Source: Leucoraja ocellata (taxonomy: Eukaryota). Taken from it: 64,000 nucleotides of DNA. The position numbers and the translations under genes are program-made. The first letter of the stretch is position 1; each line of letters opens with the position of its first letter. Of the stretch, positions 14,353 through 47,326 are shown piece after piece. The notes under the pieces were generated by a model. That model did not search any database. It was not told the DNA's origin and saw only the letters and a list, made by a program, of their open reading frames with translations. The stretch spans positions 7,998,001 through 8,062,000 of the forward strand of contig JAWMAR010000076.1 of the NCBI GenBank assembly GCA_036785375.1. Direction: 5' to 3'.

Positions 14353-14703
14353 GTCTAAAGGCAAACACATTCCTGATCCAATCCCCAGGTGCTCTGGTGG
14401 TGCGTGAAGGTGAAACAGTGGAGATACGGTGTGTCCTGAACAGCACCAATGTGAATTACATTGTGGACAAATACGACGTTCACTGGTTCAACTCACGTAA
14501 TGGAGAAATCAAACTTAGTCTTTATGTTAATGGCCACACTTACAGGTCACTGGGCTTCTCCGAGCGATTTCAGCTTTCCAGGGACGTCACCAGTAACAGC
14601 TACTCACTGACCATCAGAGAGGTGAAGATTGCCGACTCTGCTGATTACATCTGTGGCATTTGGAACATTATATTAGGAGATGGAACCAAGCTGAATGTAA
14701 CCA
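14353..14703 (+). CDS. Exon V1: N-terminal Ig V-set domain with fused J-like segment
   Basis: cccacag|GT CTA AAG GCA; [50 protein letters not shown]; donor A|gtgagt; 351 nt, phase 1-1. Confidence 0.93.
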
Positions 14704-17700
14704 GTGAGTATTTAAATTGGTTCTAATTCCAATCCTAACATCACGAGGAATCATGATGTCATGTTGTCAGTTTTACAGAGACAAACATCATTAAAAGTTC
14801 ACTCTGCAAAATGGAGAATGAAAATAGGTCAAAATTATTTTTAACTGAATAATGCAGATCACTCGTTACTACGTTCTGAGATCAGGATGGAGAATGTAAT
14901 TTGGCATTGCCAGAGAGGTACACATAGTGTGAACAGATGAATGTAAAGAAATTACAGTATAGGTAGGCTAGTTTCTTCATTTATAATCACTTTGCTTGAG
15001 TTTACTTTATTGTCACGTCTACCGAGGTACAGTGAAAAGCTTTTGTTGCCTGCTAACCAGTCAGCGGAAAGACAATACATGATTACAATCGAGCCATTCA
15101 CAGTTTATGCACGGGCACTATTAGTTGGGGCACCGTCCTGTATGGTATGGCTGCCCAGCCTGCAGCTGTCCGTTTTTTAATCTTTTTTTTTATTTTTAGT
15201 TAGTTAAAGTGTTTTTGTCCTGGAGTTCTAGTCTTTTTTATATGAGGGGTGGGGGGGGAATGGGGAAACTATCTTTCAGGGTCCCTACCTGGTCGGAGAG
15301 GAAGCTTTTCTCCGGGCTGCACCGTTGACCCGTCCTCGCGGCCTACCAGCGGGCCTGGAGCGGCGTTTCCTGAGGGGACCGCCCAGAATCTCAGCTTCGG
15401 CAGCGGCACAGCGCTGGAGCACTATCGCAGAGCGGGTGATGCCTTGCCCGGGTCGCCGCGCTGGAGATCCGGTAAGCTGAGGTCCGCCGATGGAGCGGCC
15501 GGAAGCGCTGAACTTTTCATCGGGAGCCTGGGATCTCTCACCGAGATCGGCAGTTGTGGAACTCCATCCGGCGCGTCCTTGTTGGTTTTGGAAGACGCGG
15601 TCTCGAGTAAGGAGGCGGCCGCTCCAGGTGTCCCATGCCGCTGAGAAGATTCTCCTGACGCCAGAGCACCATTACCCAGCGAGAACGGCCTGGAACATCG
15701 GGCCTCCGTAGCGGCAACTGCGGAGGCCTCAATAGGCCCAACTATGGGCGGACATGTGGATGGGACTGGACTTAGTATCTTCCCTCATAATCAAAACCAT
15801 TGTGGAGGGATGTTTTTTATGTTAAATTTCTTTATTATTGTCATGTTTGTATTCTTTTTTTATGTGCTGCATTGGCAAGAAGCATTTCACTACACCTCGG
15901 TGTACGTGACTAATAAAGAAACATTTGAACCTAGTTGCACCGTCTGCCACACTGAGATCAATTACTCAATGGTCAGCATGGGCTCAGTGAGTGAAGGACC
16001 TGTTTCCATGCTGCATCTCTACACTAAAGTAAACTAAGCATTACCACCTCAATGATCTAGCTGTACTATTTCCATACCCTCTTATTCCTCCAATATACAG
16101 AGATCTGCTTATCTCTGTAGCAGCAAAGGACTAAATAAACGACTAAACAAAGCTAAATGAAAAATGAAATCCCCATTGTGAGGCAACACCTCCCAACACT
16201 GGAGGGAGAGAGAGAGAAAGAGAATGAGAGAGTGAAAGATAATCGTGAACAGGGAGAAAGTTGCAATCAGCTGCAATCATGATTTTAATATCAGTTGCTA
16301 ACCAAGTTAGCATTACTTTTACATGAGGTTATCTAATGACAAAGGATGAATGTATTTTAAGTTGAAACACATGAAGTATTTAGCAACTCCAACATTATTG
16401 TTCATCTGTTGATATTTTCCCTTTCAAGTTGCAAATCCTCCGATCCTGATCCAATCCCCGAGGCTGGAGCGTGTCACTGAGGGTCACACGGCACGGTTAT
16501 GGTGCTCCATGGAGAACGCTGAACTGGGAAACACTGACGTCCACTGGTACCGAGAACTACCCGGGCAGGACATGGAGTGGGTTTTAACACACGAGGCAGG
16601 AGGCAGCGTACGAAGGAGACCAGGCTTCACTGAGCGGTTCCAGCCGTCCAAAGACGCCTCCAACAGCAGCTTCATCCTGAATGTCACAAACGTGATGCTC
16701 AATGACTCTGCCGTCTATTACTGCACAGTGTGGGGAGATATCAGAGGGAATGGAACCCAGCTCAACGTAACCAGTGAGTACAAATTATATTTGGTTTTAT
16801 TAACCTATGTGTAACTATATTGGGTGTAATTCACTTCCCTTGAATTGGCGCATGTACCGGGAGTACTGAAAGATTAAGGAGATCGTACTGGAGCCCTGAT
16901 TCTGGAGACCAATATATTGTGGCCCCTCACTAATGGTGTGAGCACTAATATGGTAACTGATGTCAGATCTGGGTTGTGGGAAATAAATTTCAATGTGCAG
17001 TGTGTTCTTCATTGTAGAGAAAACTAGAAATAGTGTTCAGTGCTCAGTGTAATAGCATGGCACTGCTCACAGCTGTTTGAGTTAAGGTACAGGAGAGCAG
17101 AACAACAACTTGTCATGGCTTTAGATTAACCAATGCTGCCTCCATATTCCAATGGTTAAATAGTTTTTTATTTGTCACATATGCAACTATGCAGTGAAAT
17201 TATTTTTGCATATATTACACATGCTGGTGGTGCCATGTTTTGGCGTCATGATCATTCAAAGTGCAACGTCCGGTCAGCCCACAGCTCGATGTACTGGAGT
17301 AGTTCCCATGAACCAAAGTCCCTCTCCTCTCCTCGCCCGGCCATCGTTGTGTCCCGGGGGTGCTTCCAGCAGACTATCTGGAGGCACTGGAGACAGTTCC
17401 CTGGTTCAACCTCGCACCGGCCCTTGCTCCTTGTGTCTGACGTCTCCAGCTCTCTCCCGGTCATGCCGACCGATGAGCCTTTTGACGGGTTCCCAGTCCC
17501 ACCGACCGGCAAAACTTCGGGCTTGTTTTCAACCAGGAATCACTGATACTTGAACCCCTCACAGAGCAGAGGCAACAACAACAACAACAACAACAACGCT
17601 GTCACTGGATCCAAGGCCAGGCCTCTGGAACTCACTGAGAAGAAACACGTTACACGTTGATCACCTGGGTTCATGCCCACCCTCAGGCTAACACTTTTTC

Positions 17701-20700
17701 ATTGTTGTCTGGATCTGAGTCATTGCTCATCAGCATTGCATTGATGCGGGCCCCTAATCCATGTCAAATAGTGTGAAGCATAGTTGAAATTCCCCCTCAA
17801 TATAATTTCCATGTTCCAGTGAAGTAGATAACTCGTTGCACCATCGGCAGTAAAGGAAAGATAAGAATCCGACACAAAGGCAGAAGAATAGGGTCAGTGT
17901 AAGAACAGAGTCAACGTGGATGTTTGAAATGGACATCATGGTTCAGAAATCTCTGAAAGTTGGTAGATGTTTGTAACTAGCAAAGTAGGGTAGAATATAT
18001 GGAGGAACTGGAATGAACAGCAGGTATCCAAGCTGAGGGGCTGTGACTAGTGAGAGGTACGGTTTGGTGCTGGGACCCTCACTGTTCACAATCGAGGATG
18101 AGAAGACCAAGTATAACATATCCAGGTTAGTTGGTAGGCAAAGCAACATGGGAGGAGGCTTCAAGGGGCACAGACAAGTATAAAGAGCAGGACAAGTCAG
18201 ATGGACTATATCTTCATTCACTTCTGCAGGTAAAATGGACGTAAAGCATTTTTTTAATGTTGTGAGACAGTAAGGTCAGAAGAATCCAGGTGTTCTCATA
18301 CACAAAATAACTTAAAGTCAACATGTGGATAGAATGAGCAGTTTGGAAGGCAAACATTAAAAACAAAAGGCAAAATCTGTTGGAGTAACTTAAAAGGTCA
18401 GCCAGCAAGTCCGGAGAACATGGATAAATCTGACATCCTCGATAATCTTACTCTTCAATTATCCTGAGCCTCCCTGGGAAGTATGTGATGGGATTCAAAT
18501 TTTAGAAACTGTTACACACTAAATGCTAGAGAAATATGATGCCTTCCATTGAACTCCATGTATATTCACACAGATCCCCTGTATGATCCGGTCCTTATCC
18601 AGTCTCCGTCAGTCAGCAAGGTGGCAGAGGGTGTAACCGTGCAGTTGCAATGTGCCTTGCACAAAGCTGGTGTGAATGACACTGACGTCCACTGGAACCA
18701 GCAGCGACCTGGGAAAAACAGCGAGTGGATAATGAGCCACTTTGTGGATGGCAACGTCACCAGGTCTGGCTGTATCTCTGACCGCTTTCAGTCTTTCAGG
18801 AATGCCATGAGCAACAGTTACATTCTGACCATCACCAAGGTTTCCATCAATGACACTGCTGTCTACAACTGCAGTGTGTGGAGTTACATCTATGGAGCAG
18901 GATCCCAGCTCAATGTAACTGGTAAGTCATTGTTTGCCTACACTGACGATAACAGCAGCTCACACTTCAACCTTCACGCAATGACTCACTGACACATGGG
19001 AATTCTGTGACCACTCCCAGTAAAACAGAGAGTGGAGAAGTTATCCTTGGCGTGTAAAGTGCACCAGCTAGGAAATAGATAAGTGTGTGAAAGGACGAGT
19101 ACAAGAGAACAAAAATCAAAAGTGTGAATAGTCTCCGCAAATGGTTTGTGGATGAAAAAGGATTTGCCTTTGGGTTTGAGCTGTCAGAGATGGAAGGTAT
19201 TACCAACTAATAGCATAACGTCAAATAGTCATACAGCATGGAAACATGCCCTTCTGCCCAACTTGCCCACACCGGCCAACATGTCCAGGTACACTAGTCC
19301 CACCTGCCTGCATTTGGCCCATATTCCTCCTGAAACAAATCAGAGTAAGGAGAGAAAGAGGATCACTTCATATGTTGTTAAAAGGAATAATTAGCTCATA
19401 AAATCCAATGGGAGAAGAAATATTATCAATTTCTTAAGAAAAAGCCAAGCTTGAGGTTATGAGTTTGAGTTTAATTTTACTTCGGAGTCACGTGAGTGAC
19501 TACGTGAAGAACCCACCCAGTGCGCAGGCGCGGCATTACGTCAGCAGCGCAACAGCGGCAGCAGCTGGAGCCAGGCTCTCCAGCGGCAGGATAAAGACAA
19601 GACCTCAGGTAAGTGAGTCTTTTGTATTACAGAGAGTCGCTAGCGGAGGAAGAAGCTATGGCTACCCGAAAGCGACCAACAAAGAGGACTGCCTGCCCAA
19701 CTCCACCCGAGGAAGGGTCAACATCTGGGCGGCAGCCACCAGCGGCGGAGGAGCTGTTTGAACGTTCCCGCACACCCGACGCCGAGCCGCTCCCTGGGCC
19801 GCCGACTTCGACGCCCCGCACAGGGAGAAAATCAACCCGGAAAACAGACCGGCCGGTGGCCTCCGACTCGTCGGAGGAACGGAACACTCTCCACCGGCGA
19901 AACGGGGAGACAGCCGCTTAAGCTGCATGAGGCAGCTGCTCGAGCAGATGCTTGAGCAAGAGATGCAGGCAAGGCATCTCCAAGGAGGACGGGCTTTGGC
20001 CTCCTCCAAACCATCACCACACCCTTCTGTTCCCTCCTTGTTTGAGGTCAGTAAGGGAGGCCAGGACTGGGCTGGCCTATCACAAGGGCAGGCGGACGAC
20101 TGCGCAAGCATGCCAGGCGAGCTGGAGGAAGAAGAGCTGCTGGGTGTAGTTAGCAGGTATGCGGCGCCCCCGAGGACCGGAAGGATGCTAGAGCCAAGAA
20201 TGGCGGCCAGTATCAACAGGCTCTCTAATAAGCCATTGCAGGAGAAAGTTCTTCAAGAGGCCCTCGATACATACACGGCGCCTGAAAACTGCGAAGCGCT
20301 TCGAGTAAAGACCGTAAACGGCCAGATATGGAGCCAGCTGGGACAGCATATCAGGACACAAGAGCTGAAGATGCAGCGTATCCTGAAGCTCCACACCGCA
20401 GCCATCACCGCCTTTGCTCGGTCCACGGAGAACGTGGAGCTCACTACACCTCAGCAGGACTTGCTGGCCCTGATGTGCAACACGCAGTATGAGCTAAACA
20501 ACTTGAGGCGTGAAAACATCAGGCCTGCCCTCAACCCCAAGTACGCGGGCCTTTGCAAAGCTCCGGCGCCAGAAAAGGAGGCGCTACTATTCGGGGCCGA
20601 CTTGAGGAAAAGGCTCAAGGAGCTTGAAGAGGCTGCCAAACCTGTAGGCCGCATGAGGGCAGGACCAGGACCGAGCAGGGTGAAGACACCCAGTTGGCAG

Positions 20701-23700
20701 CACGCCTCGGCATCCACCAGCAGATACCGAGCTGGTGAAAGCCTGGTGACCGCTTCCCACTACCCCCAGAGCTCTTTTTTAGAGCGGGGCCCAGAGCGGA
20801 GCCGTGGGAAGATACGCCGCCCCACCACAGCACCAACAAGGACACCCTCGGGCCAAACCCATCATCGCAGACGCTCCCAGAAATGAACATGGAGGTAGGT
20901 GGGTCTGGTTCCTGTCAACATACACAGACAAAGGGTGTTGTATTAACAGGAGGGCGTTTAAGGTTCTTCAAACATGTTTGGTGCTCCATTACTAACAACA
21001 AGTTTATACTCAACAGTATCAGTGGATACAAAATTGAATTTAAACCAGGCATAGAACCGCCGGTTCAGCACATACCCCAAAGGGTATTCCTTCCCACAGA
21101 ATTAGAGAAGGTAGAAGGACAAGCTGAATTAGATAGGCTCGTGTCCAAGGGCATCATTGAGAGGGCCAGACACGAGCCATTGGAATTTGTATCGAATATA
21201 TTTATCAGAACCAAAAAAGATGGCGGATGTCGCATTATCATTGATTTGACATCACTAAATCAATCTGTTGAGTATCAACATTTCAAAATGGAGACATTTG
21301 TTACTGCCAGACAACTGATCTCCAAGGGATACTTCATGGCAAGCATAGACATTAAGGATGCTTACTATTTAGTACCCATTCATAAGGATCATTTCAGATA
21401 TCTGAAATTTATCTGGATGGGGCAACTATGGCAGTATAGAGCATTACCCAATGGTTTAACGACAGCTCCCAGATTATTTACTAAAATTCTCAAAGTGGCC
21501 ATGAAAAAATTAAGAGAACAAAAACACTTAGTCATGGCTTATTTGGATGATGTTCTCATATTGGGGAGAACAAGGGAACTAGCTGTCGCAGGAGTCTTAG
21601 CTACTAAACAACTCCTTGAAACATTGGGATTTGTTCTACACCCAGATAAATCAGTATTGAAGCCAACAACTAACATGGACTATCTAGGCTTCACCATCGA
21701 CTCTATCCGTATGACTGTCACTCTGCCAAGGGACAAAAAGGCTGCATTAGCAGAAGCATGTAACAACTTAATCACAAAAACACAACCAAAGATCCGGCAT
21801 GTTGCCAGAGTCATTGGTAGTATAGTAGCAGCATTTCCAGCTGAACAATATGGCCCCTTGCATTATCAAAATTTACAAAGAGCAAGGACACATGCACTAC
21901 GTCAAAGTAGGGGGCATTATGACCGAACTATGGATTTACCCGCTGAAGCCATATCAGAACTTCAGTGGTGGGTGGATAACATTTGGCACAGTTACAGTCC
22001 TATCGCCGTCACCAATCCTAACATAGTCATTACGACGGATGCCAGTGCTTTAGGCTGGGGAGCTACTAACTCTATATCCAGCACAGGTGGCAGATGGACT
22101 AATTCAGAGGCATCGCTACTACAATCACTAGGCATAAATTATTTGGAGATGCTGGCCGCCTTTTATGGGCTAAAAGCATATGCATTCGATATGCGGTACG
22201 TGCATGTCAGGTTAATGATTGACAACACGATGGTGGTGACTTACATCCAGCACATGGGTGGCATAAAATCAGTATCATGCGACAAATTGACTACTATAAT
22301 CTGGCAATGGTGTGTCGAGAGACATATTTGGCTATCAGCTGCCTATTTACCAGGCAAGCTAAACACAGTGGCGGACACCAGGTCACGAAAATTCAATGAT
22401 AACATCGAATGGATGTTAGACCCAAAAATATTTGCTAGAATTGTTAAGCAATACGGTACGCCAGATATAGATTTGTTTGCGTCTAGATTAAATCACCAGT
22501 TACCCATGTATGTGGCTTGGGAACCAGACCCAGAGGCAGCAGCGGTAGATGCCTTCACGCTGGATTGGGGAAATTTCTTCTTCTATGCTTTCCCTCCCTT
22601 CTGCCTCATCAGCCGGGTACTCCAGAAAATACAAGCAGACTCGGCTTCAGGTATTCTGGTCGTACCCGACTGGCCTACCCAACCATGGTTCCCAGTTTTC
22701 CACGACATGGTGGTAGAGTCACCTATGGTTTTTCACAGCCACCCACAACTATTGACTCACCCGGTATCCGGCATAAGCCATCCATGCCATCAAAATTTGA
22801 AACTCCTGGTTTGTAGGTTCTGACCAGGCCTTACCAGGGATTGGGGTTATCAGAACGAACAATCACCACCATGTCGGCATCCCTGCGAGTCTCTACCAAG
22901 AAGCAGTACTTGACCTACATCAAGAAATGGGAGCAGTACTGCTTGGATGCAGGGACATCATACAAGACAGCCTCGATCACGGACGTGCTGGAATTCCTGG
23001 CCCACTTACACCATGACCAAAAGATGAGCTACAGTGCCGTCAATGCAGCACGGAGCGCCCTGTCCGCTTACCTTATGCCCACAGGACATCATAGCATTGG
23101 GTCCCACCCACTGGTTATAAAACTCCTCAAAGGGATTTATAATACTAAACCCCCTACACCCAGATACACTCATGTATGGGACATAAGTGTAGTTTTGTCA
23201 CACCTTAGAGGTTGGCCTCCGGTGGGATCCCTTAGTCTAGAGCAATCCACACTCAAGACCCTCATGCTCATGGCGCTCGTCTCTGCACAAAGGGTTCAGT
23301 CACTGCATCAACTAAGACTGGACAACATGGTAACCACCCCAGACTGCATCACATTTACCATGCCGGGGTTGGTAAAACAAAGCAGGCCAGATATGCCCAA
23401 CTCGCCGTTAATCTTCCGGGCCTATCCTCCAGAACCTAGGCTGTGTGTAGTGACCCATCTATACAACTACGTAGACACAACCCATACGCTTAGAGGGAGT
23501 GAAAAAGCCTCATGGGTCAGCCACAAAAAGCCTTTTGGACGGGTTACCAGCCAGACTATATCTAGGTGGTTGAAACAGGTCTTAAAAGCCGCGGGGATTA
23601 ACACGGATGTTTTTAAATCCCATTCTATCAGGGCAGCGTCCACGTCAGCGGCGGAACGGATGGAGGTTCCCATAGACCACATCCTAAGTACAGCGGGATG

Positions 23701-26700
23701 GTCAAGGGAATCAACGTTCCGGAAATTCTACCACAAACCGCTGATGGAAAAGGACTTGCTTGCGGACAAAATTTTAGAATCTGCAAACTTATAATTTAAG
23801 CCCGGGGAGCTATTTTTTGTTATTGTTTAAATAAACATTTTTGTTTTCAAAAAACTAACAAATTCGTTGGTCTTTAGATACCACTTCCTCCCTCGATAAA
23901 CTTCGGCAGTGAGTGATATAGCTGTTACACGGTTTGAAATCACAGACCTTTGAAGTCTTCACGTAGTCACTCACGTGACTCCGAAGTAAAATAGTGAGAT
24001 TAAACGAGTACTTACCAGTACGAAGTTTGATCTGTATTTTATGAGGAGTTACGATGAGGGATTACGTGCCCTCCGCTCCCGCCCTCATTGTATAGATCAA
24101 ACTTGGGCTGATGTCTCTTTAATCTTAACTATCTTTACTTCAATATTGTGTCTACCTGTGATTCCACACCGCTGCTTGGAAGTATGCCGCGCCTGCGCAC
24201 TGGGCGGGTTCTTCACGTAATCCCTCATCGTAACTCCTCATAAAATACAGATCAAACTTCGTACTGGTAAGTACTCGTTTAATCTCACTATTTATTGTCA
24301 CGTGTACTAACATACAGTAAAAAGCTTTTGCAGGCTAACTAGTCAGTGGAAAGACAATACATAATTACAATTGAGCCATCCACAGATACACGATAAAGGG
24401 AATAACGTAAATAAAGTTTGGTGCTAGATAAAGCCAGTGATTCCAATCAAAGATAGTCCAAGGATCTCCAATGTCGATAGTAGTCCCAGAGGAACTCAGC
24501 AGAGGGACCAGGGGTTAAATGAGATGGAGGAACTGAGTGAAATCCAGGTTAGCCGGGAAGTGGTGTTAGGTAAATTGAATAGATTAAAGACCGATAAATC
24601 CCCAGGGCCAGATAAGTTGCATCCCAGAGTACTTAAGGAAGTAGCCACAGAAATAGTGGATGCAATAGTGATAATTTTTCAAAACACTTTAGATTCTGGA
24701 GTAGTTCCTGAGGACTGGAGGGTAGCTAATGTAACCCCCCTTTTTAAAAAGGGAGGGAGAGAGAAAACGGGAAATTACAGACCAGTTAGTCTAACATCGG
24801 TGGTGGGGAAATTTCTGGAGTCAGTTATTAAAGACGGGATAGCAGCACATTTGGAAAGTGGTGAACTCATTGGACAAAGTCAGCATGGATTTATGAAAGG
24901 TAAATCATGTCTGACGAATCTTATAAAAAAAGATGGCGGATGTGCAGGAGTGGGCGCCGTCTGTGTATGGCAGCCTGTCCGCAGTCCGTCTCTTCACCTT
25001 TTATTTATTTTAAGTCCTGTTAAAAAATGTAAGTTTGTTAGTTGGGGGTCTTTTATGTGGTGGGCGGGGGTGGGGAAGGGGGAAAATTTAATTTTTAGTC
25101 ACCTACCTGGTCAGAGAGGCAGCATCCCTCCAAGCTGCTTCTTCGCCCAGTCCTCGCGGCCTACCATCGAGAATGGAGCGGCGTTTTCCTGTCGGGACTG
25201 GCCGGGCTACAGCTTCGACAGCAGCACAGCGCTGGGATACCAACAGATAGCGAGCGATGCCTTACCGGGTCGCCGTGCGGTAAGCTCCGGAGCGCTGTGG
25301 CCGCCGACTCCCAACATTGCAGAGCTGTGGCTGCGGGCGGCCGGACGCTGGCGGCGCTGGATTTGGAGCACCGTGGAGCCAGGGATTGTGTTCGCCAGGG
25401 TCGGAGCTCCAACCGGCGCGGCCTGAGGGCTACAAGTGCACCGGCCTCCGGTCTCTGGGCAGGAGGCAGCCGTTCTAGAATTTCCAAGCCGCTGAGGAAT
25501 GTTTCACCCGACGACGGAGTTCCATCTTCACGTCAAGAGGGCCCTGAAAATCATCGGACTGGCTGCAAAGCCACAAATGGGCCCCGACCTCGGGTGTTTC
25601 AGAGGAAGAGGACTTAACTTTCTGGTGCCTTTCCCCACAGTAGAAATGTTTGATTGTGCTGTGGGGGGACGTTTGTGTTGAACACTAAAATGTGTTGTGT
25701 CCATTTTCTTTATTTTTTTAACCTTTTTCTCTGGTTTGTATGGAAACTTATTATCTAATTTATGTAAAGCACTTAGGTGTCAATGCGAGTTGACTTAAAA
25801 CGTGCTATATAAATAAAACTTACTTACTTACTTATAGAATTTTTCGAGGATGTAACTAGTAGAGTGGATAAGGGAGAACCAGTGGATGTGCTATATCTGG
25901 ACTTTCAGAAGGTTTTTGACAAGGTCCTACATAAGAGATTAGTAAACAAACTTAAAGCACACGGTATTGGGGGTTCAGTATTGATGTGGATAGAGAACTG
26001 GCTGATAAACAGGAAGCAGAGTGTAGGAGTAAACGGGTCCTTTTCAGAATGGCAGGCAGTGACTAGTGGGGTACGCAAGGCTCAGTGCTGGGATCCCAGC
26101 TATTTACAATATATATTAATGATCCGGATGAGGGAATTGAATGCAACATCTCCAAGTTTGCGGATAACACAAAGCTGAGGGGCAGTGTTAGCTGTGAGGA
26201 GGATGCTAGGAGGCTGCAAGGTGACTTGGATAGGTTGGGTGAGTGGGCAAATGCATGGCAGATGCAGTATAATGTGGATAAATGTGAGGTTATCCACTTT
26301 GGTCGCAAAAAACAGGAAAGTAGACTATTATCTGAATGGTGGCCGATTAGGAAAAGGGGAGATACACCAGTCATTGAAAGTAGGAATGCAGGTGCAGCAG
26401 GCAGTGAAGAAAGCAAATGGTATGTTAGCATTCATAGCAAAAGGATTTGAGTATAAGAGCAGGGAGATTCTACTGCAGTTGTACAGGGTCTTGGTGAGAC
26501 CACACCTGGAGTATTGCATACAGTTTTGGTCTCCTAATCTGAGGAAAGACATTCTTGACATAGAGGGAGTACAGAGAAGGTTCACCAGACTGATTCCTGG
26601 GATGGCAGGACTTTCATATGAAGAAAGACTGGATAGACTCGGCATGTACACGCTAGAATTCAGAATATTGAGGGTGGATCTTATAGTAACTTACTAAACT

Positions 26701-29700: not shown

Positions 29701-32700
29701 GTTGATGCAGGCCCCTAATCCATGTTAAATAGTGTGAAGCACAGTTGAAATTCCCCCTCAATATAATTTCCATGTTCCAATGAAGTAGATAACTCATTGC
29801 ACCATCGGCAGTAAAGGAAAGATAAGAATCCGACACAAAGGCAGAAGAATAGGGTCAGTGTAAGAACAGAGTCAATGTGGATGTATGAAATCGACATCAT
29901 GGTTGAGAAATCTTTTAAAGCTCACGTTGTTAGATGTTTGTAACTAGCAAAGTAGGGTAGAAACTCTTGGAGGAACTGGAATGAACAGCAGGTATCCAAG
30001 CTGAGAGGCTGTGACTAGTGAGAGGTGGAGTAGGGTTTGGTGCTGGGACCCTCACTGTTCACAATCGAGGATGAGGAGACCAAGTATAACATCTCGCCGC
30101 CGCCCCGCCGACTATCCACCCACTGGGACCTCCCACACATCGCCGCGGACCCCGACTGAACTGCCACTGGACTACGACCATCGGGTCCGCTCCACCCCCC
30201 TCCAGCAACCCACAGCCGTCGCCTTACCTGGAGCCTGGACTCTGCACTGGGCCTGAAGCCTCCACGATGCTCACTCCCTCTCTCCTGGGCTCAACTCCAC
30301 TGGGTCCTAGTGCCCCTCTGCCCAGCTTTGCTAACCTCAGTGGCTGTTCCACTGACTCTCCCCCATCCCCCTCCAACTATGTCACCCCCGCTCTTCCCCA
30401 CCCACATTACAGCCCTCTCACCCCCCAACCCCCTGACCACCCACCACCCCCCCAACACCCACAGCCCCCCCCCCCCAGACACATCGCCCCATCCCCAGTC
30501 CACCCACCTGCCTTCCTCTGGTCCCAACTCCCATCCCTGCCGGGTGTTCACCATCCCCCCCGACCTCCCCCTCTCCCACACCGAACGGTCTGTCCTCAGC
30601 AGAGGGCTTACCTTTGTCCCCCCTCCGTCCCCATCTCAATGAGTTCCGCGCCCACCATGACTTGGAGCGCTTCTACCGTCGCCTCCGCCTCACAGCGCAC
30701 TTCCATGGGAAGGAGTCTTCGTCCCCCAATGATGACCCCTTTTCCTGTCTCTTCGTGGAACCCGTCTCGTAAAGTCTCGGCTCTGGAACTCTTTATCCAG
30801 AACTGCCGCCGCGACGTCAACCGCCTCAACTTCTCCACTCCCCTGTCTCACTCCAACCTCTCCCCCTCTGAACGCACTGCCATTGAATCACTCCGCAAAA
30901 ACCCAGATTGGGTCATCAAACCAGCCGACAAGGGAGGTGCCATGGTAGTTTGGCGCGTCGATCTCTACAAAGCTGAGGCCACGCGCCAACTCTCGGACAC
31001 CTCCTCCTACTTACCCTTGGACAATGACCCCACTCATGAGCACCAGGCCACCATTTCTAGCATCATCACCGACTTCATCAATCCCCACGCCCTGCCCGAC
31101 CAAGCTTCCAACCTCATCGTTCCCCAGCCCCGCACGGCCCGTTTTTACCTTCTGCTGCAGAAAGGTTTCGGCCCGAAACGTCGCCTATTTCCTTCGCTCC
31201 ATAGATGCTGCTGCACCCGCTGAGTTTCTCCAGCAATTTTGTGTACCTCCAAGTATAACATATCCAGGTTACTAGGTAGGCGATGCAACATGTGAGGAGG
31301 CTGCAAGGGGCCCAGACAAGTATAAAGAGCAGGACAAGTCAGATGGACTATATCTTCATTCACTTCTGTAGGAAAAATTGACATGCAAAGCATTTTTTTT
31401 AATGTAGTAAGACTGTAATGTCAGAGGAATCTGGGTGTTCTCATACATAAAATAACTTAAAGTCAACATGTAGATAGAATGAGCAGTTTGGAAGGCAAAC
31501 ATTAAAAACAAAAGGCAAAAGCTGTTGGAGTAACTTAAAAGTTACTCCAACAGCTTAAAAAGGTCAGCCAGCAAGTCCGGAGAACATGGATAAATCTGAC
31601 ATCCTCGATAATCTTTCTCTTCAATTATCCTGAGTCTCACTGGGAAGTATGTGATGGTATTCCAATTTTATAAACTGTTACACACTAAATGCTGGAGAAA
31701 TATGATGCCTTCCATTGAGCTCCATGTATATTCACACAGATCCCCTGTATGATCCGGTCCTTATCCAGTCTCCGTCAGTCAGCAAGGTGGCAGAGGGTGT
31801 AACCGTGCAGTTGCAATGTGTCTTGCACAAAGCTGGTGTGAATGACACTGACGTCCACTGGAACCAGCAGCGACCTGGGAAAAACAGCGAGTGGATAATG
31901 AGCCACTTTGTGGATGACAACGTCACCAGGTCTGGCTGTATCTCTGACCGCTTTCAGTCTTTTAGGAATGCCATGAGCAACAGTTACATTCTGACCATCA
32001 CCAATGTCTCCATCAATGACACTGCTTTCTACAACTGCAGTGTGTGGAGTTACATCTATGGAGCAGGGTCCCAGCTCAATGTAACTGGTAAGTCATTGTT
32101 TGCCTACACTGACGATAACAGCATCTCACACTTCAACCTTCACGCAATGACTCACTGACACATGGGAATTCTGTGACCACTCCCAGTAAAACAGAGAGTG
32201 GAGAAGTTATCCTTGGCGTGTAAAGTGCAACAGCTAAGAAACAGATAAATGTGTGAAAGGACGAGTACAAGAGAACAAAAATCAAAAGTGTGAATAGTCT
32301 CCGCAAATGGTTTGTGGATGAAAAAGGATTTGCCTTTGGGTTTGAGCTGTCAGAGATGGAAGGTATTACCAACTAATAGCATAACGTCAAATAGTCATAC
32401 AGCATGGAAACATGCCTTTCTGCCCAACTTGCCCACACCGGCTAACATGTCCTGCTACACTAGTCTTACCTGCCTGCATTTGGCCCATATCCCTCCTGAA
32501 ACAAATCAGAGTAAGTAGAGAAAGAGGATCACTTCATATGTTGTTAAAATGAATAGATTAGCTCATAAAATCCAATGGGAGAAGAAATATTATCAATTTC
32601 TTAAGAAAAAGCCAAGCTTGAGGTTATGTGTTTGAGTTTAATTTATTGTTACGTGTACTAACATACAGTAAAAAGATTTTGCAGGCTAACTAGTCAGTGG

Positions 32701-35700
32701 AAAGACAATACATAATTACAATTGAGCCATCCACAGATACACGATAAAGGGAATAACATGAATAACGTTTAGTGCTAGATAAAGCCAGTGATTCCAATCA
32801 AAGATAGTCCAAGGATCTCCAATGTCGATAGTAGTCCCAGAGGAACTCAGCAGAGGGACCAGGGGTTAAATGAGATGGAGGAACTGAGTGAAATCCAGGT
32901 TAGCCGGGAAGTGTTGTTAGGTAAATTGAATAGATTAAAGACCGATAAATCCCCAGGGCCAGATAAGTTGCATCCCAGAGTACTTAAGGAAGTAGCCGCA
33001 GCAATAGTGGATGCAATAGTGATAATTTTTCAAAACACTTTAGATTCTGGAGTAGTTCCTGAGGACTGGAGGGTAGCTAATGTAACCCCCCTTTTTAAAA
33101 AGGGAGGGAGAGAAAAAACGGGGAATTACAGATCAGTTAGTCTAACATCGGTGGTGGGGAAATTTCTGGAGTCAGTTATTAAAGACGGGATAGCAGCACA
33201 TTTGGAAAGTGGTAAATTCATTGGACAAAGTCAGCATGAATTTATGAAAGGTAAATCATTTCTGACGAATCTTATAAAAAAAGATGGCGGATGTGCGGGA
33301 GTGGGCGCCGTCTGTGTATGGCAGCCTGTCCGCAGTCCGTCTCTTCACCTTTAATTTATTTTAAGTCCTGTTAAAAAATGTTAGTTTGTTAGTTGGAGGT
33401 CTTTTATGTGCTGGGCGGGGGCGGGGAAGGGGGAAAATTTAATTTTTAGTCACCTACCTGGTCAGAGAGGCAGCATCCCTCCAAGCTGCTTCTTCGCCCA
33501 GTCCTCGCGGCCTACCATCGAGAATGGAGCGGCGTTTTCCTGTCGGGACTGGCCGGGCTACAGCTTCGACAGCGGCACAGCGCTGGGATACCAACAGATA
33601 GCGAGCGATGCCTTACCGGGTCGCCGTGCGGTAAGCTCCGGAGCGCTGTGGCCGCCGACTCCCAACGTTGCAGAGCTGTGGCTGCGGGCGGCCGGACGCT
33701 GGCGGCTCTGGATTTGGAGCGCCGCGGAGCCAGGGATTGAGTTCGCCGGGGTCGGAGCTCCAACCGGCGCGGCCTGAGGGCTTCAAGTGCCCTGGCCTCC
33801 GGTCTCTGGGCAGGAGGCAGCAGTTCCAGAATTTCCAAGCCGCTGAGGAATGTTTCACCCGACGACGGAGTTCCATCTTCACGTCAAGAGGGCCCTGAAA
33901 ATCATCGGACTGGCTGCAAGGCTACAAATGGGCCCCGACCTCGGGTGTTTCAGAGGAAGTGGACTTAACTTTCTGGTGCCTTTCCCCACAGTGGAAATTT
34001 TTGATTCTGCTGTGGGGGGAAGTTTGTGTTGAACTCTAAAATGTGTTGTGTCCATTTTCTTTATTTTTTTAACCTTTTTCTCTGGTTTGTATGGAAACTT
34101 ATTATCTAATTTATGTAAAGCACTTAGGTGTCAATGCGAGTTGACTTAAAACGTGCTATATAAATAAAACTTACTTACTTATAGACTTTTTTGAGGATGT
34201 AACTAGTAGAGTGGATAAGGGAGAACCAGTGGATGTGCTATATCTGAACTTTCAGAAGGTTTTTGACAAGGTCCTACATAAGAGATTAGTAAACAAACTT
34301 AAAGCACACGGTATTGGGGGTTCAGTATTGATGTGGATAGAGAACTGGCTGATAAACAGGAAACAAAGTGTAGGAGTAAACGGGTCCTTTTCAGAATGGC
34401 AGGCAGTGACTAGTGGGGTACCGCAAGGCTCAGTGCTGGGAACCCAGCTATTTACAATATATATTAATGATCTGGATGAGGGAATTGAATGCAACATTCC
34501 CTGGAGGCAGGAACGGTCCCAGTGGATTGGAAAATGGCCAATGTAACACCTATATTTAAAAAAGGAAGTAAACAGAAGGCGGGTAACTATAGACCGGTTA
34601 GTCTAACATCGGTGGTGGGTAAAATGTTAGAGACAATTATTAAAGAAACACTAACGGGGCACTTGGATAAACATGACTTCATCGGACAGAACCAGCATGG
34701 TTTTGTGAAGGGGAAGTCCTGTTTAACGAATCTGCTCGAATTCTTTGAGGAAGTAACAACCCGGGTGGATAAAGGGGAACCTGTGGATGTGGTATACTTG
34801 GACTTCCAAAAGGCTTTTGACAAGGTGCCACATAAGAGACTATTGCTAAAAATAAAAAATTATGGGATTGGGGGTAATATATTAGCATGGGTAGAGGATT
34901 GGCTAACAAATAGGAAGCAGAGAGTGGGGATAAATGGTTCATACTCGGGATGGCAACCGGTAACTAGCGGGGTTCCGCAAGGGTCGGTGCTGGGACCCCA
35001 GTTGTTCACAATTTATATAAATGATTTGGAGGAGGGAACCAAGTGTAATATATCAAAATTTGCGGACGATACAAAAATGTAGGGGATGAGGAGGGGATGA
35101 GGAGGATAGGAAGAGTCTGCAAAAGGATATAGATAAGCTAGGTGAGTGGGCAACAACTTGGCAGATGAAATTTAATACTAATAAATGTGAAGTCATTCAC
35201 TTTGGGAAAAAAAATGATAGGGCAAGTTATTTTCTAAATGAGGAGGAGCTGCGTTGTAATGCAACGCAAAGGGATCTAGGGGTATTAGTACATGAATCAC
35301 TGAAAGTTAGTATGCAGGTGCAGCAAGCAATCAGGAAGGCCAATGGAGTTTTGGCCTTTATTGCTAGGGGGATTGAGTATAAAAACACGGAGGTCTTGCT
35401 GCAGCTGTACACAGTATTAGTGAGACCACATTTGGAATACTGTGTACAGTTCTGGGGTCCATACTTAAGAAAGGATGTACTAGCCCTGGAGGCAGTGCAG
35501 CGAAGGTTTACAAGATTAATTCCTGCAATGAGGGGATTGACATATGAGGAAAGGTTAAGTAGGCTGGAACTCTACTCTTTGGAGTTTAGAAGAATGAGAG
35601 GCGATCTCATTGAAACATATAAGATCGTGAGGGGCCTTGATCGGGTGGATGCACCGAGGATGTTCCCAATGATCGGGGAAACTAGAACTAGGGGACATAG

Positions 35701-38700
35701 TTGCAGAATAAGGGGGGGCTCTTTTAAAACTGAGATGAGGAAGAACTTCTTCACCCAGAGGGTGGTTAATTTATGGAATTCACTGCCCCAGGGAGCAGTG
35801 GAAGCAGAAACTTTAAATATATTTAAGACTAAAATAGATGGTTTTTTAGCTGCCAAGGGGATAAGGGGCTACGGGGAGAGGGCAGGGATATGGACCTAGG
35901 TATGGTTAGTATAGTAAGACCTGAGTGATCTCCTGGACAAGTGTCGATCGCCTGGATTGGGGTCGGAGAGGAATTTCCCGGATTTTTTTCCCGAATTGGA
36001 CCTGGGTTTTTGCCTCCCCCAGGAGATCACGAGGTTCTTGGGGTGGAGAGGGGTGATAGCGGTATAAAGGGGAGGGTAGTGTCTTGTGTTCTGTGTCTTG
36101 TGTCTACTGTTTGTGGGTAAGTGTGTCTGTTTAGTGTTCAGCCATGAGCGAATGGCGGTGCGGGCTCGACGGACCTGGTGGTCTACTCTCGCACCTACTT
36201 TCTATGTTTCTATGTTTCTAACATCTGCAAGTTTGCGGATGACACAAAGCTGGGGGACAGTGTTAGCTGTGAGGAGGATGCTAGGAGGCTGCAAGGTGAC
36301 TTGGATAGGTTGGGTGAGTGGGCAAATGCATGGCAGATGCAGTATAATGTGGATAAATGTGAGGTTATCCACTTTGGTCGCAAAAACAGGAAAGTAGACT
36401 GTTATCTGAATGGTGGACGATTAGGAAAAGGGGAGATACACCAGTCATTGAAAGTAGGAATGCAGGTGCAGCAGGCAGTGAAGAAAGCAAATGGTATGTT
36501 AGCATTCATAAAAAAGGATTTGAGTATAAGAGCAGGGAGATTCGACTGCAGTTGTACAGGGTCTTGGTGAGACTACACCTGGAGTATTGCGTACAGTTTT
36601 GGTCTCCTAATCTGAGGAATCTTGACATAGAGGGAGTACAGAGAAGGTTCACCAGACTGATTCCTAGGATGGCAGGACTTTCATATGAAGAAAGACTGGA
36701 TAGACTCGGCTTGTACACGCTAGAATTCAGAATATTGAGGGTGGATCTTATAGTAACTTACTAAACTCCTAAGTGGTTGGACAGGCTAGATGCAGTAAGA
36801 TTATTCCCGATGTTGGGGAAGTCCAGAACTAGGGGTCACAGTTTAAGGATAAGAGGGAAGTCTTTTAGGGCCGAGATGAGAAAATCATTTTTTATACAGA
36901 GAATGGTGAATCTGTGGAATTCTCTGTCACAGAAGGTAGTTGAGGCCAGTTCATTGGCTATATTGAAGAGGGAGTTAGATGTGGCCCTTGTGGCTAAAGG
37001 GATCAGGGGGTATGGAGAGAAGGCAGGGATGGGATACTGAGTTGGATAATCAGCCATGATCATATCGAATTGCGGTGGTGGCTCGAAGGGCCGAATGGCC
37101 TACTCCTGCACCTATTTTTATGTTTCTATGTTTCTATATGGAAGGTACACAAAAATGCTGGAGAAACACAGAAGGTGCAGCAGCATCTATGGAGTGAAGA
37201 AAGGCAACGTTTCGAAACATTGCCTATTTCCTTCGCTCCATAGATGCTGCTGCACCCGCTGAGTTCCTCCAGCATTTTTGTGTACCATCGATTTTCCAGC
37301 ATCTGCAGTTCCTTCTTAAACATCGTATATGAAAGGGTTGATTATCATGTGCAGGAGGGATAGGGGAAGATATTAACAAAGACTGGAGGTGATAAGCGGA
37401 AAAGACAATAGATAACAAATAATGAAATCTGATAAGAAAAGGTTGGAATAAAATGTGGAACCCGAGGGCGGATGGTGAGGTAGATCGGAACCGGAAGGTG
37501 GAGGTGATGTGGCAGATAAATGTACCCAGAGGGGCTAGGGCTGTATAATGAATAGCGAGTGGAAAGACAGGTATATGTGAGAGTTTTTATTTTACGCCTT
37601 TGTTGCTTGTCAAATGCCTTCTGAAAGTCCAAATTCACATCAGCTAGTTTTCCCTTATCTGGGCTGGTAACTACAATCTCAAAAAATTAGCTGATTTGTT
37701 GAATATGATTTCCTTTACAAAAACATTTTGACTCCACCCTGTCCTGATATATTCCAAATGCCTCACTTACTTATTAATAAATTAATAATAGATTACAGCT
37801 CTTCCCTCATCCATGCTTCCCCTCATAATCTTGTGTGGTAATCTACACTCTCAACTCATCCGTCTCACCTCCTGTGCTTCTTGCTTTAAAGTGAATGCAG
37901 TTAAACCTACCAGTCCTCTCATGCTCCCCCTCTCATCTCTGCCAATGCTTCCACTGGACTTGCCTGTTCTATTGTCTACATATGAGTCCGTTGTCATTCT
38001 GGGTCCCAACCCCTTGTCTCACTAGTTTAAACTCTCTTGAGTAGCAGGAGCAAACCTCTCCACAAACCCATTCAGAACTTTGTTTGTCCCCATGCACAAG
38101 TTATATAATATTGCAGGATCACTGAACTCAGTAACATTGTTCTGGTTTAAGTATCACAAGGGCCCATTCCTGTGCTGTGCACACCTATGGCCCGAATCAA
38201 AAAGACTCCATATTGCATGCGATAGAATGACTACTTCTTGTGTACAGCGTGCACAGCCTCACGAAACACTACATCTAGTGGTTTGTGCACGTCGGGTTGA
38301 TTGCATTAGTCGAAACAGGGTGGACCACGTGAAGGTTGCATTCTCCCATCCTATAGAATGACTAAAACAATTCTACATATTTAGTGTTAGATTCTGTGCA
38401 CTCTTTAAGCATGGTTGTGCTGAGTGTTTTTTTTTTTAAGAAGACGTATTTTCCCATTAAAGTTGCAAATCCTCCGATCCTGATCCAATCCCCGAGGCTG
38501 GAGCGTGTCACTGAGGGTCACACGGCACGGTTATGGTGCTCCATGGAGAACGCTGAAGTGGGAAACACTGATGTCCACTGGTACCGAGAACTACCCGGGC
38601 AGGACATGGAGTGGGTTTTAACACACGAGGCAGGAGGCAGCGTACGAAGGAGACCAGGCTTCACTGAGCGGTTCCAGCCGTTCAAAGACGCCTCCAACAG

Positions 38701-41700
38701 CAGCTTCATCCTGAATGTCACAAACGTGATGCTCAATGACTCTGCCGTCTATTACTGCACAGTGTGGGGAGATATCAGAGGGAACGGAACCAAGATGATT
38801 GTCACTAGTAAGTTCAGTTTACACAATACTAAACGATCTCCGTTAGTGAAAATATAGAGCAGTTTTGCGCGTTTTTGGATAGCAGTTTTGCACGTTCATT
38901 TTTATTTCAGTTTACAATATTTAAAATGTTAAAAACATTAAAAGTGTTGAATCTTTTAGTTTTCATAGTCATACAGCGTGAAAACAGGCCCTTCGGCCCA
39001 ACTTGCCCATACCGATTCATTTTCATGTATATATTTATGCAGGGTCAGATTTAGATGAAGAGAGGCCCTAAGCTATTTCACTTGTGAGACCCCCCCATTC
39101 CCTGGTCCAGATGTAAGTAGGAGAAGGTGTCCGAGAGTTGGCGCATGGCCTCAGCTTTGTAGAGATCAACGCGCCAGACTACCATGGCACCTCCATTGTT
39201 GGCGGGTTTGATAACCCAGTCTGGGTTGTTGCGGAGTGAGTCGATGGCAGTACGTTTGGGGGGGAGAGATTGGAGTGAGACAGGGGAGTGGAGAAGTTGA
39301 GGTGGTTGATGCCCCGCCTACAGTTTTGGATAAAAAGGTCTAAAGCCGGAAGATGGCCATGAGGGGGGTCCACGAGGAGGGGGTTGGTTGGAGACGGGAA
39401 AAGGGATCATCAATAGGGGGCGAGGACTCCTTCCCATGGAAGAATGCTGTGGGGTGGAGGCGACGGTATAAGAGCTCCAAGTCGTGGTGGGCGCGGAACT
39501 CATTGAGGTGGGGACGGAGGGGGACAAAGTTAATGCCTCTGCTGAGGACTGACCATTCGGTGTCAGAGAGCGGGAGGTCAGGGGGGATGGTGAACACACG
39601 GCAGGGATGGAGGTTGGGGCCGGAGGAAGGCAGGTGAGTGAACTGAGGCCGAGGCGATATTTGATGGGGGGGGGGGGTCGCAGAGTATCCTCTAGTATCT
39701 TTGCCAGCCACTGAGGTTACCAGTGTTGGGGAGACTGGCACTAGGACCCAGTGCAGTCAAACCCAGGGGCGTGGGACTAGTGCAGCTGGGATATTGTTGG
39801 CCGATGTGGGCTAGTTGGGCTGAAGGGCCTGTTTCCACACTAATCACTCTATGACTCAATGACAATTACCTGTTTTTTTCATCTCTGGCCTTTATCCAAC
39901 CATCTTCCTGTCAAAACCCCTCACCTGTTTTACCTATTACCTGCCATGCTTTGTCCTGCCCTTCCTCTCTTCTAGCTTTCTATCCTCCCCTCCCCCCACA
40001 CACACAATCAGTCTGAAGAAAGATCCTGACCCAAAATGTCACCTATCCATATTCTCCAGAGATTAAGCCTGTTCCCATGCTACACTGTTCTATGTTTTAT
40101 TACAGACATTCACTTTGTTCCACCCCCTGCCCTCCCCCAGGTTCCTGGCTACTTAGACCAACCTGGCCTCTCAGACCAACTCGCTTGCTCAGTTCTGATG
40201 AAGGATTTTCAACTTGCAGAGTAGATTGTATCTCTCCCCACAGATGCAGCCTGATCTGCTGAGTGTGTTCACAATTTTCTATTTTTATCCCAATCTGGGT
40301 AGCTTTGGAGAATGCTATGATGGGGCATCTATGATGGGGCATCAAGCAAGCCTGTGTGTTTGCTTAAAATGAGAGAAATAAACACATGTTGCAACTAAAC
40401 TCTATAAACCTTTGATATTTTTCAGATCAAACATATGAAAAGTTGTCTTCGAAAATCTTGGGCGGTATTGTAGCCTGTGTCCTGGTATTCATCCTCTTAT
40501 TCATCATCTTAGCAATAGCAGTGTGCTATATGAAGAAATGGGTGTGCTTCCAACACATGTTTAAATCCGAAGGGTGAGTAAAATGTATTTCCACATCTTG
40601 CTTTAATATGATATTGAATTAAGCATGGTGGGCACGGGCGTTGAATCCAGCAAAGACCGGAGGAAAGAGTCGTAGAACATGGAAGTTTCATGGGATGGAA
40701 CAGTTCAGGCACGGGTGTAAAGGTGGGTTTGCTGCCTTACAGCGCCAGAGGCCCGGGTTCGATTCTGACTATGGGTGCTATATGTTCAGAGTTTGTCTGT
40801 TCTTCCCGTGACCTGCATGGGTTTGCTTGTTTCCTCATACATTCCAAAGAAGTACAAGTTTGCAGGCTAATTGTAGGTAAAATGGTAAATTGTCCTAGTG
40901 TGTAGGATAGTGTTATTGTGCGGGAATCGCTGGTCGGCGCAGACTCGGTGGGCCGCAGGTCCTGTTTCCACACTGTATCTTAAACTAAATTAAACTAAAA
41001 TTTCAGTTATGTGGAGGGACTGGAGAGGCTGGGTCCCAATGCCAGCACATCCTTCCTCAGATATAGACTGATCATAATACGCCAAACTGCTCATAATACG
41101 CCAAACACGGTCTGAGCAGTGCCTTATAAAGCCTCAGCATTACAACCTATTTTGTATTATAGCCCTCAAAGTAAATGTGAGCTTTGCATTCACCTTCCTT
41201 ACTACCGATTCGACTTGCAAATTAATCTTTTGAGAATCCTGCACCAGCACTCCCAAGTCCCTTTGCACCTCTGATTTCTGAATTATCTCCCCATTTAGAA
41301 AATAAGACAATTTTATGTGATTATTGAACATCCCACCACATTGCAGACCTTTCTTTAGACTTTAGAGATATAGTGTGGAAATAGGCCCTTCAGCCCACCA
41401 AGCCCAGTGATCACAAACACTATCCTACTCACTGGGGCCAATTTACAATTTTTACCGAAGCCAATTAATCTGCAAACCTGTACATCTTTGGCGTGTGGGA
41501 GGAAATTGGAGCACCGGAGAAAACCCACGCAGGTCACGGGGAGAATGTACAAACTTCGTAGAGACAGCAGCCGTAGTTAGGATTGAATTTGTGTCTCTTG
41601 CACTGTAATGCTGCAATTCTACCGCTGCGCCATTGTGTTTATTTATTTATTTATGTATTTATTTGTTTTATTTTTTAATTCATATTTTTATTAGAAGCAG

Positions 41701-46343: not shown

Positions 46344-46574
46344 TGACTGATTAAAGGTCACCCCTCAGGGTTCTTCTGGCTGGTATCTGTCAAAGCACAG
46401 AACTCCCAAATGTCACAGTTCTTCGTTCTGGTTCTTAGGCATATGCCTCAATATTTTCTTACCCTTAATCTCACATAAAGTAGATAGCCTACAGATTGGT
46501 CTTCACATGCCACATTTATTCTTTTAATATAGTTTCCCAGTCTACCCAACAACTCACAACTCATACAGTCACCC

Positions 46575-47125: not shown

Positions 47126-47326
47126 CTTTGTTGATTCTTCAGCATGCCGATATAGAATATCATCTTATACACATGCTGCAAATTCATCTACACAATTAGA
47201 GCTAATTTTATTTCCCAGACCCGATGTGAATTAAAGTCCCAAGATATTACTATGATGCGTTGCTACATTACCTTCTCAACATGATTTCCCACTGATATCT
47301 GTGGTTAGATAAACTGACTACAAATT

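Follow-up and report, generated by a model that had tools for sequence, protein, structure and literature searches.

A 64,000-nucleotide stretch of the genome of the skate Leucoraja ocellata (the window; positions 7,998,001 to 8,062,000 of contig JAWMAR010000076.1, here G000:C76:7998001-8062000) contains a gene for a predicted inhibitory receptor with six extracellular immunoglobulin (Ig) domains. The domains are of three types, U, A and B, arranged as U-A-B-A-B-A. We consider it likely, at roughly 80%, that this array goes back to a four-domain U-A-B-A gene in which a single unequal homologous exchange took place between near-identical A exons, lengthening the predicted stalk of the receptor.

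The six V-set Ig exons are followed by a transmembrane exon and a cytoplasmic tail with an immunoreceptor tyrosine-based inhibitory motif (ITIM) and an immunoreceptor tyrosine-based switch motif (ITSM), all in one open frame. All six V exons are bounded by AG and GT and are in phase 1, the frame stays open through the transmembrane segment and tail, and every one of the six domains scores best as V-set. Its nearest protein matches, 91-95% identical, come from skates. The exons and the two repeat copies are given below, with positions counted in the window unless a scaffold is named; VJ denotes joined variable and joining segments.

G000:C76:7989164, 23 kb 5' of V1 and beyond the window: leader exon
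14353..14703, + strand: V1 exon, type U, joined-VJ V-set domain, highly polymorphic
16429..16773, + strand: V2 exon, type A, first-position flanks
18574..18921, + strand: V3 exon, type B, third cysteine at residue 66
28391..28735, + strand: V4 exon, type A, chimeric, with a V6-type upstream intron and a V2-type downstream intron
31740..32087, + strand: V5 exon, type B, open in the window, 1 bp longer and frameshifted on scaffold C5
38463..38807, + strand: V6 exon, type A, last-position flanks, derived J end
40426..40573, + strand: transmembrane exon, hydrophobic stretch without a charged residue
42345..42388, + strand: cytoplasmic exon 1, VYSTV tyrosine
44747..44790, + strand: cytoplasmic exon 2
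46227..46346, + strand: last exon, phase 0, ITIM-like ILYADI and ITSM-like TEYAAI, then stop
16413..28374, + strand: repeat copy A (V2, intron, V3, intron), from self-comparison
28375..38446, + strand: repeat copy B (V4, intron, V5, intron), from self-comparison

The exchange is recorded in the introns around V4. Self-comparison of the window, suggested as a check in the original prediction, recovers a tandem unit that ends with one extra A exon (V6). Identity across the unit is 94-97%: 94.0% for 16413-18122 against 28375-30095, 94.6% for 18107-19477 against 31249-32644, 97.1% for 24290-26149 against 32641-34497, and 96.9% for 26145-28744 against 36220-38816. The proposal that V4 joins the upstream intron of V6 to the downstream intron of V2 agrees with the flank counts and is seen on both of the scaffolds described below. 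The first 60 bases 3' of V4 are identical to those of V2 at 59 of 60 positions and to those of V6 at 21 of 60, and the intron 5' of V4 tracks that of V6 and not that of V2. The intron ends 5' of V2 and V6 are alike in 14 of their last 16 bases and in 11 of the preceding 44. The upstream intron of V2 and the downstream intron of V6 had been called unique, and this holds apart from repeat fragments. The V6-transmembrane intron has zero match to the V2-V3 or V4-V5 introns, and the V1-V2 intron resembles the V3-V4 and V5-V6 introns solely through repeat fragments of 72-84% identity.

The J end GTQLNVT, taken in the original prediction as a further mark of V2, does not serve as one. The next gene downstream, a four-domain neighbour (U-A-B-A and a transmembrane segment, open on both scaffolds), has GTQLNVT at the end of its last A exon, which has V6-type flanks; the GTKMIVT of V6 is the odd J end. 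The J end is therefore not diagnostic, and the intron alone is. The exchange point lies within the shared block at 28375-28712, up to exon base 322. Single-nucleotide polymorphisms in the exon do not place the breakpoint, except for the single site 220, which is C in both V2 exons and T in both V4 and both V6 exons; this site alone hints at a breakpoint between 28611 and 28712.

A second scaffold, C5, carries the same duplication. Over 290 kb, C5:255-545 kb and C76:7.83-8.12 Mb run in the same order with about 98% identity, and the last bases of C76 match C5 near 1.05 Mb; two further overlap probes were swamped by repeats. From this assembly layout, C5 is probably the other haplotype of the same locus. 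The start of C5 (C5:1-110000) aligns with C76 7.39-7.59 Mb in reverse and the receptor cluster in forward orientation, which may reflect a heterozygous inversion beside the cluster or a flip introduced in scaffolding. C5 holds the same six exons, including the chimeric V4. The suggestion that domain number varies between alleles is not borne out in the two haplotypes examined, both of which have six exons.

The two scaffolds also speak to an assembly artefact, in which two haplotypes were falsely joined in tandem and which had been named as the outcome that would overturn the proposal. Divergence between the copies of the B-A intron (2.1-2.8%) is near that between alleles (1.7-2.1%), as such a join would produce, and C5 contains scaffold gaps. 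Against this, C76 and C5 each carry both copies, share an insertion specific to copy B, and have their own private indels. Across both introns of the unit, informative sites are copy-specific in 37+27 cases, haplotype-specific in 3+5 and crossed in 9+4. The excess of copy-specific over haplotype-specific sites (64 versus 8) therefore indicates one older duplication that predates the split of both scaffold sequences, and we regard a false join as very improbable. Because copy divergence in the B-A intron is close to allele divergence, the duplication is only slightly older than the haplotype split. Among the 8 DNA contigs of run X1 listed, none spans an A exon with both flanks; these contigs cover pieces of the unit.

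Three insertions distinguish the copies in the window.

19477..24289, + strand: DIRS-like tyrosine-recombinase retrotransposon, 4.8 kb, three open frames, absent from C5
30093..31261, strand not assigned: 1.16-kb insertion with a 13-bp target-site duplication, in copy B only, on both scaffolds
34498..36224, + strand: CR1-like long interspersed nuclear element (LINE) fragment, 1.7 kb, inside an older LINE, absent from C5

All three had been offered as copy-specific evidence for a real duplication. The 1.16-kb insertion does mark copy B on both scaffolds, but the DIRS-like and CR1-like elements are private to C76, and since C5 lacks both they postdate the duplication. The first of these, which we take to be DIRS-like from its open reading frame (ORF) content and from what is known of the DIRS family, is probably a recent insertion private to the C76 haplotype. 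The minus strand carries a related element at 47323-50022 that is older and more decayed. The different (AAC)n lengths cited for the copies, 8 and 9 in the window, are 6 and 6 on C5 and so do not separate them.

The predicted ancestor, V1-V2-V3-V6, has counterparts both next door and in other species: the neighbour has four domains on both scaffolds, and U-A-B-A models occur in eight species. We scanned 110 proteins, several of whose models are isoforms or partial, for the tail and found it in 38. Nine of these are U-A-B-A (8 shark and ray species), 10 are U-A-B, 5 are U-A, 2 are U-A-B-A-B (Mobula), 1 is A-B-A-B-A (Carcharodon) and 11 have other arrangements. None of the 38 is U-A-B-A-B-A, and the Carcharodon model, which has no N-terminus, may be one. 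The arrays of Mobula (devil ray) and Carcharodon (white shark) represent parallel expansions. Domain counts in related species, another of the suggested checks, thus agree with the proposal in that U-A-B-A is widespread; they depart from it in three other skates, considered below.

The A exons themselves are homogenised to different degrees. In a tree of the A domains of 19 selected proteins and 8 domains of this genome, A domains cluster by species in Heptranchias, Carcharodon and Pristiophorus (starred support), and the skate group has support of 87/95. Identity between the first and last A domains is 67-69% in the four-domain genes of Mobula, Pristis and Hemitrygon, rises to 74-86% in Narcine and the carpet sharks, and reaches 91-96.5% in Heterodontus, Heptranchias and this skate. 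Homogenisation of the A exons therefore supplied homology for the exchange. Comparison with the neighbour bears on whether that exchange took place within one gene. In the initial 760 bases of the B-A intron, the two copies differ by 2.3-3.5% from each other and by 7.4-8.9% from the four-domain neighbour; the intron copies are 96-97% alike, versus 87-89% to the neighbour. Both copies share LINE insertions in this intron that the neighbour lacks. The shared insertions, and the closeness of the copies to each other relative to the neighbour, favour an intragenic event. Together with the chimeric flanks, the four-domain neighbour and the U-A-B-A models in eight species, they support the proposed unequal exchange between the two type-A exons.

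In the mechanism that we propose, gene conversion would have brought the first and last A exons to about 96% identity and left their introns unrelated. The 360-bp A blocks would then have mispaired and recombined, copying A-B once, and the uniform phase 1 of the exons would have preserved the frame. The event would slightly predate the split of both haplotypes, with the transposons inserting later. Meiotic crossover, sister exchange and homology-guided template switching are indistinguishable by sequence alone.

Several observations weigh against so simple an origin. The halves of the unit disagree: A-B intron copies differ by 5.2-5.8% and B-A copies by 2.1-2.8%. A-B intron alleles are 3.4-3.9% apart against a background of 1.1-2.0%, and the four A-B intron copies group against an upstream paralogue, p0, with support of only 81/88. 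The twofold greater divergence of the A-B copies is what might be expected had the gene arisen by fusion, through a break again in an A exon, of the 5' part of one family member with 3' sequence from a close sister gene that has since been lost or replaced. For the A-B introns, p0 stands at 5.5-6.4% against 3.9-5.7% between the copies, and A exons are shuffled among all members of the cluster. The LINE insertions common to both B-A copies and their distance from the neighbour argue the other way, as does the lack of any closer sister gene within the 294 and 290 kb examined. We judge intergenic fusion unlikely as the origin of the array. The unequal divergence of the halves and the weak separation from p0 indicate, however, that later or intergenic exchange was likely layered on top of the intragenic event.

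Other contrary points concern whether the protein has six domains at all. The tail-bearing models of three other skates are U-A-B or A-B, with an additional A-B-A fragment in Amblyraja, and these skates may either lack the last A exon or skip it; V4 and V6 share the last-A acceptor and may likewise be skipped here. On C5, one extra T in a short T run shifts the frame of V5 (G000:C5:451888-452236) and truncates the protein unless V5 is skipped, which regains the frame. The extra T may be a sequencing error. The duplication might accordingly exist in the DNA yet be neutral or silent, with extra exons that are skipped or decaying and a protein that remains at three or four domains. Skipped-exon isoforms among the models of relatives (for example P0013/P0043) fit this possibility, and no selection test favours six domains. 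In the window, by contrast, all six exons are open with AG/GT boundaries, and the A exons appear mildly constrained, with proportions of nonsynonymous (pN) and synonymous (pS) differences of 0.022 and 0.029, a difference that is not decisive. Three raw RNA runs (same or related species, 1-5% of each sampled, part of the gene) gave depths of at most 0.43 per strand in the V4/V5 bins, too thin for expression or splicing, and none of the 15 joints listed runs exon to exon (2933 more lie beyond those listed, from the same thin sampling). We hold a silent duplication to be a real possibility, though the less probable one.

The head of the receptor differs sharply between the scaffolds. V1 and its C5 counterpart (G000:C5:439384-439734) differ at 31 of 351 bases (8.8%), compared with 32 of 1723 (1.9%) in the intron that follows (P=2e-9). 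In the protein they differ at 22 of 116 residues, compared with 3-7 residues each for V2, V3, V4 and V6. V1 and three paralogous U exons differ by 6-9% between scaffolds, mostly through replacements in loops like complementarity-determining regions (CDRs). These loops, the three CDR1-3 equivalents, make up 24 of 116 positions and hold 38 of 68 residue differences. Pooled over the four U pairs, pN is 87/1061 and pS 10/331 (P=8e-4). The case for diversifying selection is tempered in three ways: taken by itself, this gene shows no significant excess (27/266 versus 4/82, P=0.18); the pooled pairs, which have sequence in common through conversion, are not independent; and in a reverse-strand paralogue only 3 of 13 changes fall in the loops.

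The predicted structure of V1 is an antibody-like V domain with a predicted local distance difference test (pLDDT) score of 90, and antibody V domains are also the solved structures closest to it; V1 is the predicted ligand-binding head. There are 2 N-glycosylation sequons in V1 and 25 in V2-V6. The tail, whose motif is conserved in sharks and rays, combines an ITIM and an ITSM with an uncharged transmembrane segment, as in inhibitory immunoreceptors. These features suggest a receptor in which a glycosylated spacer carries a variable head and is joined to a putative inhibitory tail. V1 would bind a variable ligand through its CDR-like loops under diversifying selection, V2-V6 would serve as the spacer, and the tail would recruit SHP-type phosphatases. 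Two extra V domains would add roughly 7-8 nm. The B domains (18574-18921 and 31740-32087) have an unpaired third cysteine, which is present in Mobula and not in Carcharodon; doubled by the duplication, it could contribute to dimer formation. The ITSM was defined following PMC11599192.

The same U, A and B domains, transmembrane segment and tail occur in Leucoraja XP_055495050.1, Rhinoraja XP_078261638.1 and Carcharodon XP_041063830.1. Unnamed elasmobranch RefSeq models are 86-96% identical per domain to Leucoraja and have three, four or five modelled domains. Outside elasmobranchs, searches of limited sensitivity found no full-length relatives beyond turtle pIgR-like matches at 23-24%. Several shark relatives are named SIRP-alpha-like by NCBI's automatic annotation, and the joined-VJ receptor type is functionally like SIRP-alpha. 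The SIRP ectodomain is V-C1-C1, and identity with SIRP was set aside: all six domains score best as V-set, with no C1-set match at E<=0.001. PRARP and VJC1 genes have a V-C1 structure. Skate MDIR and CD300 have a CD300-type V domain with a second disulfide; compared by description alone, they may differ in this from the present receptor, whose domains have no second cysteine pair. G6b-B (MPIG6B) reached an Atlas feature match of 0.94 at rank 13, but PF15096 was unmatched at E<=0.001.

The receptor has V and J in one exon, a GxG motif and an antigen-receptor-like fold, the features of joined-VJ receptors of the immunoglobulin superfamily (IgSF). FGxG is present in 7 of 8 U domains, and the U domain of the window has LGxG. 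Among the joined-VJ receptors of this kind named in PMC11599192 are SIRP, NITR, CD8, NKp30, PRARP and CD79. The likeness extends to the germline VJ exon, the paired ITIM and ITSM, a polymorphic N-terminal V domain and clustered paralogues with different tails; the difference is an ectodomain made entirely of V-set domains, with no C1 or I domain, that number 2-6 or more. Three further candidates were rejected on domain structure. CD28/PD-1 family members are described with a single extracellular V domain (PMC11599192), compared with six V exons here. NILT proteins have extra CX3C/CX6C/CX7C cysteines and NITR proteins one V and one V/C2-type domain (both from PMC3022915), compared here with two cysteines in U and A, three in B, and a tandem V-set array.

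As a process, the closest parallels are in sharks and humans. For shark UrIg2, IgW and IgNAR, PMC12227049 describes two-exon duplications and gene conversion, with domain number differing by species; UrIg2 has 9 versus 11 C domains in different sharks. Like UrIg2 as described there, the skate gene is a non-rearranging VJ gene of an elasmobranch, with a homogenised stalk that most likely lengthened when two adjacent exons were copied. UrIg2 differs in its C1 repeats, its immunoglobulin heavy chain/T-cell receptor (IgH/TCR) complex and its antibody-like dimers (PMC12227049), in place of which we find V-set repeats, an ITIM/ITSM tail, and nicotinic receptor alpha and PTK2B neighbours. Identity with UrIg or UrIg2, which needs VJ and then C1 domains, was rejected for lack of any C1-set match in the six domains at E<=0.001. 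Human complement receptor CR1 (CD35; PMC2188435) is likewise an immune receptor in which intragenic duplication of a block of several exons, together with the introns, altered the length of the ectodomain. CR1 is built of complement-control repeats and its length polymorphism segregates in people (PMC2188435), whereas both skate haplotypes have the long form.

The gene lies in a cluster of relatives. In p0, 11.5 kb at G000:C76:7883769-7895317 containing a broken last A exon are missing on C5 (at C5:310062), which shows that exon content is variable within the cluster; the B exon of p0 is partial on both scaffolds. The transmembrane exon donor of the four-domain neighbour (G000:C76:8106331) is GC on C76 and GT on C5. 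A paralogue 0.4 Mb away (C5:871896-882498, L048/L049; C76:8539475-8544469) has two V domains, and its A exon continues into a 1988-codon frame that matches a 1999-residue Rhinoraja protein. This frame looks like a mucin-type stalk and suggests another route to a long stalk. Three more family members at G000:C76:7837113-7960678, one on the minus strand, have a different transmembrane segment and a YEN-type tail and are possibly partners with other signalling. Flanking frames (C5:243-254 kb and 559-910 kb) match a nicotinic receptor alpha subunit, DUF4772, stathmin, a TRIM-type RING-B-box protein, PTK2B and a class A G-protein-coupled receptor, in a synteny scan that covered 146 of 904 candidate ORFs. 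This flanking block may correspond to that of human 8p21.

The crossover is a new, clean and well-preserved example of a known process; the receptor family is of larger interest. It spans elasmobranchs and carries automatic names only. In a search of titles and abstracts that covered few subscription journals, we found no publication naming it, so that absence from print is not established. We tentatively suggest that it represents an undescribed set of elasmobranch inhibitory receptors, germline-encoded and antibody-like, clustered next to CHRNA2/PTK2B-type genes, each with a hypervariable VJ head and a homogenised V stalk. Stalk length may have been repeatedly retuned, by unequal exchange, exon skipping or, in one paralogue, a mucin stalk, to ligand reach or cell-contact spacing. 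The intact VJ exons of the family are of the kind sought as relatives of a pre-RAG antigen receptor (PMC12227049). A head that varies at CDR-like loops between the haplotypes of one animal would be expected of conflict with pathogens or of a polymorphic self ligand. In human natural killer cells, receptor-ligand length controls inhibition (PMC3001952). Since length matters there, adjacent four- and six-domain genes with nearly identical tails would offer a direct test of selection on stalk length.

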